A stretch of DNA of 64,000 nucleotides from Candidatus Culexmicrobium cathedralense. Its GTDB lineage: Archaea; Thermoproteota; Methanomethylicia; Culexarchaeales; Culexmicrobiaceae. The notes under the pieces are model-generated. The model ran no database searches, was not told the origin of the DNA, and saw only the letters and a program-made list of their open reading frames with translations. The translations under genes and the position numbers were made by a program. Location of the stretch: positions 768,001 through 832,000 of the forward strand of contig JANZKC010000001.1 in assembly GCA_025061115.1 (NCBI GenBank). Direction: 5' to 3'. Shown one piece after another: positions 1 to 60,268 of this stretch. Numbering within the stretch: the stretch's first letter is position 1; each line of letters starts with the position of its first letter.

Positions 1-1
1 T

Positions 2-427
2 AAGTTGACTGCGGAAGTGCCAAGCATAGCTGAAGTTGGATTAGCCGTGGAAAAAGCGGGGGCAGATGGCGTGACCGCAATAAATACGCTGAGAGCAATG
101 GTGATAGATATAGAATTAGGATTGCCAGTATTGGCAAATGCCTTTGGAGGGCTTAGTGGGCGAGCCATTAAGCCAATTGCAGTCAGATGCGTATACGAGC
201 TCTACGAGAAGCTGAGCATTCCAATAATTGGAGTAGGAGGAGTATTAACATCTGAAGATGTCATTGAATTTTTAATGGCCGGAGCAAGCGCAGTGCAGGT
301 TGGATCAGCCATCGCAATAAAAGACCTATCAATATTTAAGGAGCTTACGGAGGGGCTTAAGAGCTTCATGATGAGAAAGGGGTATGAAAGGATTAGTGAA
401 ATCGCTGGATTGGCCCATAGGAGGTGA
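2..427 (+). CDS. pyrD: Dihydroorotate dehydrogenase B catalytic subunit (3' part; truncated by window edge)
   Basis: INTLRAM, GGLSGRAIKP, IIGVGG, AGASAVQVGSA motifs; directly upstream of pyrK. Confidence 0.95.
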   Translation, partial: KLTAEVPSIAEVGLAVEKAGADGVTAINTLRAMVIDIELGLPVLANAFGGLSGRAIKPIAVRCVYELYEKLSIPIIGVGGVLTSEDVIEFLMAGASAVQVGSAIAIKDLSIFKELTEGLKSFMMRKGYERISEIAGLAHRR

Positions 428-8656: not shown

Positions 8657-9268
8657 TCAAGAGGGTGCGGAGGTTTCTGTCCGCCCTAAGAAAGACTCAA
8701 CAACCATTTTTATGTCACTGAACACCTCACCGACACTTCGCTCACCATCAACAACGACCCAATTAAATTCCTTGGAAAGTTTGAGGTAACAATTCCTTAC
8801 TTTCTCGAGAAAAGCATAGTTCCGCTCATATATGTCCTGCTCTTTCTTCATACGTTTAAATGACGTATCAACGGTTATGTCTATGACTACCACTAAGTCC
8901 GCCTTTGGAAGACCTTCTTCAAGGCATAACAGCCACTTGAGTGGAAGGTCATTGGCTAAGCCATAGGCAATCCCTGAGGGGGTATATCGGTCTGCTATGA
9001 CTATTCTTCCATCATCGATCCACTTTTCAATGTCGCGCTTTCTCTCCCACCTATTTGCTACGTATAGAAGCTGGCGAACTTCGGCTGAAAAGTTGCGCTT
9101 GCCATCGAGAAAAGCTTTAATTTCCTTTCCAATTGGCGTTGAGTAGTCTGGAAACTCTATTGTCTCAACTTTAAGGCCCAAATTTTCAAGCCAAGCTTTA
9201 AGCAACCTTGCCTGAGTTCCCTTACCAGACTTATCTATTCCCTCTAAGGCGACTAGGCGCCCAGCCAA
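8657..9268 (-). CDS. tmk: Thymidylate kinase
   Basis: LEGIDKSGKGTQ P-loop, IADRYTPS. Confidence 0.93.
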   Translation of the reverse strand: MAGRLVALEGIDKSGKGTQARLLKAWLENLGLKVETIEFPDYSTPIGKEIKAFLDGKRNFSAEVRQLLYVANRWERKRDIEKWIDDGRIVIADRYTPSGIAYGLANDLPLKWLLCLEEGLPKADLVVVIDITVDTSFKRMKKEQDIYERNYAFLEKVRNCYLKLSKEFNWVVVDGERSVGEVFSDIKMVVESFLGRTETSAPS

Positions 9269-38306: not shown

Positions 38307-38400
38307 TGGTGGGGCCGCGGAGATTTGAACTCCGGTCACGGGGACCCATTGGGGGAACAGCGTTCTAACCCCGCAGCCTTCCAGGCTAGCCTACGGCCCC
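38307..38400 (-). tRNA. tRNA-Pro(TGG) with 18-nt intron at 33/34 (38349-38366)
   Basis: Spliced CGGGG-TT-TGG-GT-CCCCG; BHB GGGG-TTA-GAAC gct GTTC-CCCC-AAT; GGGGCCG/CGGCCCC-A-CCA. Confidence 0.88.
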
Positions 38401-38530
38401 ACAATGATTAGCCGGCACAGACTTCTAGAAAGAAAATGCATAGTCCCAGCTTAAATATTTGCTGACAAGCCATCAAACACATTTATTATTCATAGTATTA
38501 AAATAAAGTTAATTCGTGGAGAGGAAGTGA

Positions 38531-39241: not shown

Positions 39242-39293
39242 AACAAAATGGTAAAAATAGATATATAGCAATAATTGTAGTAGGGGGTAGTTT

Positions 39294-41540
39294 ACGCACT
39301 GTTCAAGGTTTTCCACTGAAAAAATATTAGGAGCCCTGTCCAACAGCACCAGAATCGAAATCCTCAAGAAGTTAAGTAGAAGCGATGAGCTGAGCTTCAC
39401 CGAGTTAATGCAAGAACTCAACATGTCTCCTCGCAGCGACGCGGGAAAATTTGGCTATCATCTGAAGACGCTCGTCGAATCCGGGCTCGTGTCGACCGTT
39501 CCTGCTTCAGGGAAATATGCGCTTACAGATATTGGAAAAATCATGGCCGAGCTCATTTGGGAAATTGAAGAAATTAGCAGGAAGAAATCTAAGCGCATGC
39601 TTGTTAGAACCTCAAGTTTAACCATGGAGCCATTTGAGAGAAGAAAAATCGTTGAAGCATTAATACGTGAAGCAAATGCTCCTAGAAGAATAGCGGAAGC
39701 CATAGCCAAAGAAGCTGAGGAGAGGCTTTTAAAGCTCGAAATAAGCTATTTGACTGCACCCCTAATCAGAGAGTTTGTGAATGCAATATTGCTGGAGCAA
39801 GGGTTAGAGGATTATCGGCACTCAATGACAAGACTGGGTTTGCCGGTCTATGATGTAGAGAAGCTACTTGAAGAAGAACATTACATCCCAACTTTTCCAG
39901 ACAAAGTGCATGCAGCAACGGGAGACGCAGTAATGAGCGAATATGCTTTAATCAAGCAGCTTCCAAGGAGAGTGTCTGATGCACATTTAGCCGGTATGAT
40001 ACATATATGCAATACCAATTATTGGATGCTTCGTCCAGCTACAATTCATCATGATCTGTCATTTTTCTTGAAGAAAGGTTTTGAAGTGAGAGACGCAGGT
40101 CTAACGCTTGCATTTAGCGGTCCACCTAAAAGCCTTCGAGCTGCACTTCTCTTTGCAATTAGGCTTGCCCATCTAATGCAGAGCAATTTGGCGGTAGGTC
40201 AGTTAATAGATAACGTAAACTACATATTAGCTCCATACGCGTCAAACTTGAAGATAGAGGAAATGAAAAAGGCAGTTCGTGAAGCACTATTATATTTAAA
40301 TCAAACTCTGACTTCAAGAGGAAGTGTAGTTCCACTTGCATTTGGCTTAACGGTATCTCCACCAAAGTACATTGAAGAAAATTATAATGACTACATAGAT
40401 GAAGCCATATCCTTATTCAAGGCGATTTTACAGGCAATGTACGAAGGAGACTTCGCAAAAAAACCGTTCATCAGCCCACTCCCCATAATTAAGATTTGCG
40501 GAAGAATGTTAAGCGGAAAAGAAGATTATGAAGAAATTTTGGAGGAAGTTTGTAAGCTAACTTCAAAGTGGGCTACACCTTACTTCATAAACTTGAATGC
40601 TGAATGGCAAACCAGAGAAGTAAGTTATGGGTGGGATTTATCAAGGTTAGAGGCAAAGAAGAGTGAAGATGCAAAGTATCTATTGACGCAGACTGGGTGC
40701 TTAGATACTGTTATCATAAATTTGCCGAGAATTGCTTTAGAGGCAAATGGTGATGATGAAGAATTCTTCTCAAAACTTAAAGGTTCGATCTCTCTTGCTG
40801 TGGAAACACTGAATGCTAAACGCGAGTCAATTGATAAACAACTGGAGAAGGGGCATCTATCGCTCCTGAACATACAGTCGGGAGGAGTACCATACTACCA
40901 TCTGGAAAATACTACCTGCAATATCGGCTATATAGGGATGCCCGAGGCTGTAAAAATTCACGTTGGAACATGGGTACATGAAGATGTTAATGCGCTATCA
41001 TTTGCTGAAAAAATCGTGGATTTCATGTTAAGAGAAATAAGAAAGAGGAGAGGACGCTGGACAATAACTTGCATATCTCTTGAAAACGCGAGTGAAAGGC
41101 TCTTAAGAACAGACATTGCGAGATTTGGTCTTAAAAGAGTTCAGGAGGAGGTTGGTGGAGAGCTTCATTACACCCACAATATGCACGTACCAATGCACGC
41201 GCAAGTGCCGCTTAGTAGGAGAATAGCCATTGAAAGCAGATTTCAAAAGAAACTTAATGGGGGACATGGCTTAAACATATATCTTCGAGAGCCCATGCCA
41301 GATGCAGATTACCTCATAAAATGCCTGAGAAGCATTGCAACACGTACAGATTTAGGAGCCTTTACACTCACTAGGGACTGGACGTACTGTAAATGGTGTG
41401 GGAAATTATTCGGCGGCTTTCAAGAGAAATGCCTAAATTGTGGAAGATCTTTGAAGAATATAATACATTACACCAAGATGGTAAATGTATATGAAGTTTT
41501 GATTGAAAGACGCATTAGAAGAGTGAAATATGCAATCTAA
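39294..41540 (+). CDS. ArsR-HTH + ATP-cone + class III ribonucleotide reductase (NrdD)-fold fusion lacking radical/catalytic residues
   Basis: Frame open from 39291 (ALSNSTRIEILKKL...LSFTELM...AGKFGYHL); ATP cone VRTSS...FERRKI...LTAPLIREFVN; NrdD fold with INLPRIA and CKWC/CLNC; no R-x-x-G-Y loop; first ATG at 39408. Confidence 0.85.
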   Translation, partial: THCSRFSTEKILGALSNSTRIEILKKLSRSDELSFTELMQELNMSPRSDAGKFGYHLKTLVESGLVSTVPASGKYALTDIGKIMAELIWEIEEISRKKSKRMLVRTSSLTMEPFERRKIVEALIREANAPRRIAEAIAKEAEERLLKLEISYLTAPLIREFVNAILLEQGLEDYRHSMTRLGLPVYDVEKLLEEEHYIPTFPDKVHAATGDAVMSEYALIKQLPRRVSDAHLAGMIHICNTNYWMLRPATIHHDLSFFLKKGFEVRDAGLTLAFSGPPKSLRAALLFAIRLAHLMQSNLAVGQLIDNVNYILAPYASNLKIEEMKKAVREALLYLNQTLTSRGSVVPLAFGLTVSPPKYIEENYNDYIDEAISLFKAILQAMYEGDFAKKPFISPLPIIKICGRMLSGKEDYEEILEEVCKLTSKWATPYFINLNAEWQTREVSYGWDLSRLEAKKSEDAKYLLTQTGCLDTVIINLPRIALEANGDDEEFFSKLKGSISLAVETLNAKRESIDKQLEKGHLSLLNIQSGGVPYYHLENTTCNIGYIGMPEAVKIHVGTWVHEDVNALSFAEKIVDFMLREIRKRRGRWTITCISLENASERLLRTDIARFGLKRVQEEVGGELHYTHNMHVPMHAQVPLSRRIAIESRFQKKLNGGHGLNIYLREPMPDADYLIKCLRSIATRTDLGAFTLTRDWTYCKWCGKLFGGFQEKCLNCGRSLKNIIHYTKMVNVYEVLIERRIRRVKYAI

Positions 41541-41542
41541 AT

Positions 41543-42541
<999 letters not shown>

Positions 42542-59965: not shown

Positions 59966-60268
59966 TTATTCTCTGTAAGGACAGGTGCAAGGAGAGTTTT
60001 TACAGCGGGGGCAAACGTTTTTGTACTTAGAGAAAGCCGCCTTTGCAAGGTCAACCCCGACGAGATTCGCTAATGAGGACAGCCAGGCCAGGACATCTGC
60101 GAATTCACTCTCCATCAACTCATGGTCTCCATCTCTGATTGCTCTGGCAAGTTCTCCAACTTCCTCTACAAGCCACATAAAGGTTTTACCGACGCCTCTA
60201 GTGCTATCGCGGGTAAAGTAGAGGCGCCGCATCATGTCCTGAAACTCTCTCAGGCTCATTGCGCACAC
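59966..60268 (-). CDS. MazG-like nucleotide pyrophosphohydrolase
   Basis: WLVEEVGELA, EFADVLAWL, CPRC..PCTC. Confidence 0.9.
   Translation of the reverse strand: MCAMSLREFQDMMRRLYFTRDSTRGVGKTFMWLVEEVGELARAIRDGDHELMESEFADVLAWLSSLANLVGVDLAKAAFSKYKNVCPRCKNSPCTCPYRE

Follow-up and report, generated by a model that had tools for sequence, protein, structure and literature searches.

What a ribonucleotide reductase (RNR) does when it stands behind a DNA-binding domain and has lost its catalytic residues is the question raised by a gene of the archaeon Candidatus Culexmicrobium cathedralense. The gene lies in a stretch of 64,000 nucleotides (contig JANZKC010000001.1, positions 768,001 to 832,000; hereafter the window), and its open frame encodes a winged helix-turn-helix (wHTH), an ATP-cone and the barrel and zinc site of a class III RNR (NrdD). 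An earlier reading of the window, made from its letters and open reading frames (the sequence-only reading), had described this order of domains and taken the protein for a nucleotide-sensing regulator, like NrdR in concept and built from a dead RNR. Our analysis supports this proposal by the loss of catalytic residues throughout the family, the presence of live RNRs in the genome, the adjacency of family members to RNR genes in other lineages, and a 12-mer common to the promoters of both in Bathyarchaeia. The protein is probably a transcription factor made of a whole, catalytically dead class III RNR that senses nucleotides for RNR genes, and its family most likely represents a so far undescribed regulator of the synthesis of DNA precursors, not an enzyme. 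The features of the locus are collected in Table 1. Residue numbers are those of the 749-residue translation of the frame.

A class III RNR fold joined to a winged helix

The proposed order of HTH, ATP-cone, NrdD barrel and zinc site was borne out by Pfam and by a structure model. The N-terminal residues match DUF7347 (residues 11-87, 41.2 bits), HTH_5 (residues 18-68, 34.9 bits, cut-off 22) and HTH_20 (29.6 bits, cut-off 27). The recognition helix bears the family signature D-A-G-K-F-x-Y-H-L, in which G52, F54 and H57 are invariant in an alignment of 58 members (A1). An AlphaFold2 model made from 58 homologues (pLDDT 88.2, pTM 0.75) predicts HTH helices at residues 9-15, 19-31, 36-42 and 47-63, and wing strands at 67-69 and 76-78. 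When solved structures were searched with Foldseek, the top 35 ranks were all class III reductases, from S. thermophilus, P. copri, T. maritima and phage T4 (E-values 1e-26 to 5e-19, target-normalised TM 0.60-0.78). The NRDD profile (PF13597) gives 277 bits, for a cut-off of 26.2, and is covered from position 9 to 533 of its 562; because the match stops there, the glycyl-radical end of the profile is left unmatched. The NrdD equivalog model TIGR02487 reaches 255.5 bits, which is under its cut-off of 326.35, and the remaining NrdD equivalog models also stay far under theirs.

The residues of radical chemistry are lost throughout the family

Two alignments served to map the catalytic positions, one with the genome's own working NrdD (29% identity, 737 columns) and one between the family profile and the NrdDs of known structure (phage T4, P. 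copri, S. thermophilus and T. maritima). What each position does, including the first-strand Cys171 of P. copri, is taken from the part of PMC11226230 used here. Three strings had been read as remnants of the glycyl-radical loop, the H-I-H-D-L segment and the finger loop; they are present at residues 727-735, 238-256 and 445-453, and the alignments agree with these motif readings. The solved NrdDs put T251, S451 and N732 at the places of the first-strand Cys, the thiyl Cys and the radical Gly. S451 aligns with the Cys of M-G-C-R in the T4 and S. thermophilus enzymes.

A protein search returned 954 relatives, of which we analysed the best 120. The first-strand Cys is found in none of these members, nor is the complete triad of both Cys and the Gly. 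The thiyl Cys is present in 10 of the 120, nine of which have no Gly at the radical position; the single member with both has nearest relatives that vary at the Cys position. The column of the radical Gly holds G in 57 members, A in 28, N in 18, S in 12 and other residues in 5. The Arg that follows the thiyl position (R452) is kept by all 120. The incomplete catalytic set first noticed in one gene is thus shared by its relatives, 120 members out of 120.

The losses extend beyond the radical residues. Our comparison set comprised 24 working archaeal NrdDs, and a column was called invariant when it reached at least 95% in these enzymes. Among the 98 invariant columns, the family retained 30 and lost 68, including the N-x-N substrate flap (E-N-A-N), H-x-H-D, T-P-A-E and the loop-2 Gln. 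The flap, T-P-A-E and the loop-2 Gln are invariant in the 24 working NrdDs and variable or deleted in the family, with a gap at the loop-2 Gln in 104 of the 120 members. The mean frequency of the top residue is 0.75 in the cone (0.87 over residues 151-175) and 0.49 in the barrel of the family, and 0.59 and 0.68, respectively, in the working NrdDs; the two sets differ in diversity, and the contrast between cone and barrel is valid within each set only. Judged by these frequencies, the conservation pattern of the family is inverted relative to that of the enzyme. The RNR scaffold had been thought to be kept for its allosteric sites. This stands at most for the ATP-cone, the best-conserved part; the idea does not extend to the specificity site, because loop 2 is deleted in 104 of the 120 members and the flap is gone.

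In a maximum likelihood tree, one branch parts 38 family rows from the 24 working NrdDs with a Shimodaira–Hasegawa-like approximate likelihood ratio test (SH-aLRT) support of 100. The 38 rows were picked out of the 120, the other 82 being left out, and one row classed as working (L088) came from the scan of loci described below and has no HTH. The reading of the gene as a recent pseudogene fails because the catalytic set is lost in all 120 members and the branch has full support.

We also scanned species-representative archaeal genomes, which gave at least 598 pattern matches and at least 563 stretches encoding a relative. The best 80 of these stretches were taken as the loci of the subsequent analyses. 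Their hosts are Methanomethylicia, Culexarchaeum, Bathyarchaeia and Hecatellales, together with the Asgard lineages Atabeyarchaeum, Jordarchaeia, Helarchaeota and Promethearchaeota. An HTH-bearing member is encoded in 79 of the 80 loci, and L088 encodes a working NrdD.

The same genome encodes working reductases

A search of the genome for a separate active RNR and its activase found nrdH-nrdD, nrdG and a class II RNR. The working NrdD has 754 residues, with the R-V-T-G-Y-Y loop and the cysteines intact, and its gene is on the contig of the HTH-NrdD gene, at a distance of about 350 kb. Directly upstream of it lies a small glutaredoxin-like gene (nrdH, C-P-R-C), and beside it, in convergent orientation, the radical S-adenosylmethionine activase gene nrdG, whose 140.9 bits with TIGR02495 make it the sole match above the cut-off. 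The same search gave no NrdG-like match in the window, in agreement with the earlier remark that no activase gene adjoins the HTH-NrdD gene. The class II-like RNR (nrdJ) is a frame of 2100 codons about 310 kb away on the same contig, with its own classical cone and putative inteins. NrdR (TIGR00244) was not found in this 99.99% complete assembly, in a search whose control was positive in 9 of 14 genomes.

Two further observations concern these loci. The frame of the class II-like RNR (G000:C1:491385-497684, covered by loci L003, L005 and L006) matches PF02867 in three pieces, which suggests inteins, and its N-terminal ATP-cone carries the classical K-R-D-G. Just upstream of nrdH-nrdD there is an open reading frame of 121 residues without a Pfam family (L001 4134-4499, minus strand; G000:C1:458619-458984), and this arrangement is kept in the same genome and in four related ones (G079, G151, G153 and G154).

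Family members accompany RNR genes of two classes

A second gene of the NrdD family follows the HTH-NrdD gene on the same strand in 20 of the 80 loci. R-x-x-G-Y is present in all 18 downstream NrdDs that are full-length, which fall into two NrdD subtypes; the remaining two are truncated at contig ends. A glutaredoxin gene stands between the HTH-NrdD gene and nrdD in 13 loci. Across 151 genomes of the phylum, the matches to PF13597 form two classes of scores, one of full-profile matches with at least 420 bits and one of about 180-320 bits, the latter in frames of 740-860 residues. Of the 19 genomes listed from the class or order of Ca. C. cathedralense, 17 contain at least two matches. G002, G028 and G116, which belong to a single family, have the low-scoring type only and hence no working nrdD; in each of them this gene bears the HTH signature and is immediately followed, on the same strand, by a class II-like RNR gene (PF02867). 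From this gene order, the HTH-NrdD gene thus appears to accompany whichever reductase the organism uses.

A common promoter element in Bathyarchaeia

The Bathyarchaeia loci have an 18-nt box that lies 15-51 nt before the start codon of the family gene. With up to three mismatches, this box occurs 36 times in the 1.195 Mb of loci, and 26 of these occurrences are at the promoter of the family. Its exact 12-mer core is found 21 times in the same 1.195 Mb: 13 times at the family's own promoter, once inside a coding region, six times in reverse orientation, and once more before an nrdD gene. Five of the six reversed 12-mers are at 53-65 nt before a glutaredoxin-nrdD operon, and the sixth is at a contig end where the operon is expected. 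Together, the family's own promoters and those of nrdH/nrdD account for 20 of the 21. Inspected by eye, the nrdD promoters of Methanomethylicia and one class II promoter have a related T-rich box followed by A-C-T-C.

We looked for corresponding elements in the genome of Ca. C. cathedralense. The Bathyarchaeia 12-mer was rejected as an operator there, with 49 of its 80 sites intergenic and none at a reductase promoter or at the HTH-NrdD gene. The best ungapped 14-mers common to the nrdH and HTH-NrdD promoters of five related genomes gave nothing consistent. The pattern ATCAA[N]CAC[N]TTT (first N optional) has seven sites in the genome, only two of which are intergenic, namely those at the promoters of nrdH and of the HTH_3 gene that precedes the HTH-NrdD gene; the pattern was derived from the same two promoters that it picks out. 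The element is conserved in a relative with 82% protein identity, and at the corresponding place of the HTH_3 promoter two related contigs (L095 and L099) have an 11-mer that is the same as in the nrdH promoter of this genome. A palindrome of the nrdH and pyrB/pyrI promoters, TAAGCTTA, was also considered as an operator and rejected, having 145 sites in the genome, 29 of them intergenic, for about 53 expected from base composition. This 8-bp word is often placed 20-50 nt before gene starts and may be a lineage-specific promoter word.

The ATP-cone

The ATP-cone is the presumed sensor of the protein. A profile of the cones of the family and of working archaeal NrdDs reaches the solved cones 9d3x (E-value 1.9e-5), 5olk, 8p23 and 5im3; a phmmer search of solved structures with the cone alone retrieved no cone. 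We mapped the residue roles from the S. thermophilus NrdD, whose cones, according to the part of PMC12662201 used here, adopt markedly different positions with ATP or dATP. By this mapping, the family invariably keeps the Ile of helix 1 (I120), which clashes with the 2'-OH of ATP, and the helix-4 Tyr of the S. thermophilus cone corresponds to a deleted region. The working NrdDs of archaea that are linked to nrdH show part of the same cone variant (V-R-R-S-D-G, L-I-R-E). Its conservation indicates that the cone is clearly functional in some way, and the protein would bind a nucleotide through it.

The open frame and its start

The frame is open on the plus strand of the window from 39291 through the stop codon at 41538-41540. 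Compared with contig L095, whose product has 82% protein identity, it has 288 synonymous and 132 non-synonymous codon differences over the 749 codons, a pattern that indicates a gene under purifying selection. The position first given for the gene start, 39294, needs revision, because the codon there is ACG, which is non-canonical. After the upstream stop (39288-39290), the first ATG, GTG or TTG to occur is the ATG at 39408, and in the structure model the HTH starts near residue 9, well before this ATG. The ACG sits 6 nt past a GGGGG run resembling a Shine-Dalgarno sequence, in the window as in L095 and L099 (89% protein identity), two metagenome contigs of other origin. The other candidate lies further downstream (Table 1). 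Codons 12-39 differ from those of L095 by 15 synonymous changes and one non-synonymous change, and codons 1-11 by two and six, respectively. Because the differences in codons 12-39 are mainly synonymous, the HTH is translated. The arrangement between 39283 and 39408 looks, from its sequence, like non-canonical initiation in an archaeon. The database entries of the protein and of its closest relative (P0001 and P0002) were called from the internal ATG, which gives 710 residues and misses the HTH.

Table 1. Features of the HTH-NrdD locus (positions in the window)
Feature	Positions	Strand	Evidence or remark
Operator candidate in the HTH_3 promoter	38472..38484	+	TATA-like box about 24 nt upstream; weak, post hoc
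HTH_3 (XRE-type) protein, 236 aa	38531..39241	+	Pfam HTH_3; 49 nt before the frame of the putative regulator
Start candidate 1: GGGGG run, stop of the upstream frame, one codon, ACG (39294-39296)	39283..39296	+	Kept in the window, L095 and L099
Frame of the putative regulator (dead NrdD)	39291..41540	+	749 codons and stop; codon differences indicate purifying selection
ArsR-type winged HTH, residues 11-87	39321..39551	+	Pfam DUF7347, HTH_5, HTH_20; profile matches to CadC/HlyU
Start candidate 2: ATA (ATT in relatives)	39324..39326	+	Homologue P0006 called from the equivalent position
ATP-cone, residues 103-175	39597..39815	+	Pfam, 30.6 bits (cut-off 25.8)
NrdD-type ten-stranded barrel, residues 203-724	39897..41462	+	Pfam NRDD; degenerate active-site motifs
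Remnant of H-I-H-D-L/first barrel strand, residues 238-256	40002..40058	+	Cys position is T251 (40041-40043)
Finger-loop remnant, residues 445-453	40623..40649	+	Thiyl Cys position is S451; profile alignment to M-G-C-R
Cys4 zinc site C700, C703, C714, C717	41388..41441	+	Invariant in 58/58 members of alignment A1
Glycyl-radical loop remnant, residues 727-735	41469..41495	+	Gly position is N732 (41484-41486)
pyrB	41543..42466	-	Pfam OTCace_N, OTCace; convergent with the frame of the putative regulator

Proposed mechanism and alternatives

We propose that an ancient duplicate of an archaeal NrdD lost the radical Gly, both radical Cys, the substrate flap and loop 2. It would have kept its fold and zinc site and, most of all, its ATP-cone, while gaining an N-terminal winged helix of the ArsR type. 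The barrel would pair two subunits, as it does in NrdD dimers, and the cones would sense the adenine nucleotide state, probably ATP versus dATP. Repositioning or pairing of the cones upon nucleotide binding, as in working class III RNRs, would then shift both winged helices on or off their operators. With predicted operators both at RNR promoters and at the promoter of the regulator itself, the transcription of RNR would track the supply of deoxyribonucleoside triphosphates (dNTPs). In this genome, the regulator would act at a distance on nrdH-nrdD and/or nrdJ, and perhaps also on its own operon.

Several observations weigh against a dNTP-sensing regulator of RNR genes. The Lys-Arg of the K-R-D-G hairpin, which is near the phosphates in solved cones, is replaced by T107 and S108 (an invariant Arg stands one position before this pair), and an invariant Arg (R160) takes the place of the His/Gln that forms a bond with the ribose 3'-OH; both assignments follow the residue roles taken above from the S. 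thermophilus enzyme. Given these replacements, the ligand of the cone may be different or absent. No RNR gene adjoins the HTH-NrdD gene in this genome, none of the 80 sites at which the Bathyarchaeia 12-mer occurs there with up to one mismatch is at nrdH, nrdJ or the HTH-NrdD gene, and the gene has no canonical start. The element ATCAA[N]CAC[N]TTT is a weak post hoc lead, which by a rough estimate that allows for the comparisons made would arise by chance in about 1 of 10 cases. Finally, gene adjacency and a common promoter motif are correlative evidence, and related genomes are not independent of each other.

Some of these points would be explained if the protein were a DNA-binding regulator with a different or wider regulon or signal, such as pyrBI or a ligand other than ATP/dATP, a possibility to which we give a small share of the weight. 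It is favoured by the replaced Lys-Arg of the hairpin, by the lack of an adjacent RNR gene in this genome, and by pyrB, which is immediately adjacent in 9 of the 79 rows having the focal gene (window included) and lies in the flank in 25 of the 80 loci and in the window. Yet pyrB is convergent and therefore has no promoter in common with the HTH-NrdD gene, and in several loci the order is HTH-NrdD gene, nrdD, pyrB, pyrI, so the adjacency to pyr genes may be inherited synteny. Moreover, the sole specific common promoter element that we found ties the family to nrdH/nrdD, and class II RNR genes become the neighbours where nrdD is absent. This last point also bears on a role as a non-catalytic partner of the working NrdD, i.e., a pseudo-subunit whose heterodimers tune activity and whose HTH is secondary. 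NrdD is dimeric, the barrel fold is retained, and most genomes of the same class have one working and one dead copy, judging by the at least two PF13597 matches in 17 of the 19 listed, all of which would suit such a partner. We nevertheless consider it improbable: a mere role as an NrdD subunit is argued against because the gene adjoins a class II RNR gene where nrdD is absent, as in the three genomes that have the dead form, no working NrdD, and the HTH-NrdD gene just before the class II gene. In addition, constraint is weakest in the barrel, and the HTH recognition helix belongs to the invariant parts.

That the protein is still an enzyme, with a chemistry that needs neither glycyl radical nor cysteines, is very hard to credit. 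In its favour, the barrel, the zinc site and some inner residues (N434, R452, N477-L478-P479 and E648) are invariant or nearly so; however, the flap, T-P-A-E, the loop-2 Gln and H-x-H-D vary in the family, the barrel is relaxed relative to working NrdDs, and a wHTH at the N-terminus is unexpected on a metabolic enzyme. We regard as equally far-fetched that the gene is decaying in this genome, having lost its ATG and encoding a product of 710 residues without half of the HTH. The absence of ATG, GTG and TTG ahead of 39408 and the HTH-less database entries would fit such decay, but the 28 codons before this ATG carry the ratio of 15 synonymous to one non-synonymous difference against the relative at 82% identity, the start arrangement is kept in three contigs of different origin, and the whole frame is intact.

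A broader form of the proposal, which we hold to be rather doubtful, is that the family is a general regulator of dNTP supply in TACK and Asgard archaea with two sensors, the cone for ATP versus dATP and the dead barrel. The invariant inner residues N434, R452, N477, P479 and E648 would then still bind nucleotides at the old catalytic or specificity sites. If this were true, RNR transcription would answer both the overall dNTP level and the balance of the pools, and a whole reductase would have become a ligand-binding domain early in archaeal evolution.

Relation to known systems

NrdR is a bacterial repressor of RNR genes in which a Zn-ribbon is joined to an ATP-cone. The HTH-NrdD protein likewise pairs an ATP-cone with a DNA-binding domain, has a genomic tie to RNR genes of more than one class, and probably regulates its own gene. 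It differs by its winged helix, where NrdR has the Zn-ribbon, by a cone without the hairpin Lys-Arg pair, and by the whole dead RNR body of 550 residues that follows the cone; homology with NrdR is confined to the cone. By analogy, it is most likely a functional counterpart of the bacterial NrdR, neither a homologue of it nor one of its family. As for archaea, the NrdR genes tabulated in the part of PMC3019208 used here belong to haloarchaeal class I RNR operons and are treated as a bacterial transfer.

The cone-bearing NrdDs (P. copri 8p23, S. thermophilus 9d3x and the nrdH-linked type of the same genome) share the fold of the HTH-NrdD protein and its succession of cone, barrel, Cys4 zinc site and C-terminal hairpin; its identity to the genome's own NrdD is 29%. 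In contrast to them, the HTH-NrdD protein has neither the radical Gly nor the thiyl and first-strand Cys, is devoid of the N-x-N flap, of T-P-A-E and of the loop-2 Gln, falls under the cut-off of TIGR02487, has an extra N-terminal wHTH, and is without a dedicated activase. Its N-terminal 90 residues resemble the ArsR/SmtB proteins, matching HTH_5, HTH_20 and the structures of CadC (1u2w) and HlyU (3jth). Unlike these proteins, it scores 35.2 for a cut-off of 55 with the metalloregulator model NF033788, and its sensor would be the fused cone and barrel, with no metal site in the HTH dimer.

Metabolic enzyme folds have been reused for sensing in other DNA-binding proteins, as exemplified by PutA, BirA, NadR, the "trigger enzymes" and pseudoenzyme sensors. 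Enzyme-derived regulators such as PutA, BirA and NadR mostly stay active enzymes, whereas the enzyme body described here is dead and its proposed targets are the genes of its own live paralogue. A search of the full-text literature, with supplements and subscription journals outside its scope, found no paper on this protein family. To our knowledge, the transcriptional control of RNR in most archaea is an open question, for which a wHTH fused to an RNR-derived nucleotide sensor would be a direct candidate. It would also clearly exemplify the conversion of a large radical enzyme into a dead scaffold for regulation. Source databases name the members "anaerobic ribonucleoside-triphosphate reductase" or "helix-turn-helix domain-containing protein", and because of the former name the counts of class III RNRs would be inflated. 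Counting the dead forms as reductases overstates the class III RNR capacity in metabolic reconstructions, e.g., in the three genomes that have only these forms.

Neighbourhood of the gene in the window

The neighbours named in the sequence-only reading, an HTH regulator upstream and pyrB/pyrI downstream, were recovered with Pfam. The HTH_3 gene is found in 16 of the 80 related loci as well as in the window, and is possibly co-transcribed with the HTH-NrdD gene. The adjacency of the two in the window looks, from the gene order, like inherited synteny. In the loci of Methanomethylicia (L017-L030), the two are separated by the genes of an HMG-CoA synthase-like protein, of a thiolase and of an OB-fold protein of the DUF35 type. 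Downstream, pyrI lies beyond pyrB; the latter is a recurrent neighbour in convergent orientation, and no regulatory link is drawn from it. Three of the other nucleotide-related genes that had been listed are also present, but they lie 20-39 kb from the HTH-NrdD gene: tmk at 8711-9247 (minus strand), the end of pyrD at 1-370 (plus strand), and a MazG-family gene at 60002-60184 (minus strand). Ahead of the HTH_3 gene, ARAGORN reports a tRNA-like gene of 94 nt (38307-38400, minus strand) with an unresolved anticodon. The same sequence precedes HTH_3 in related loci, and it is possibly an intron-bearing archaeal tRNA.

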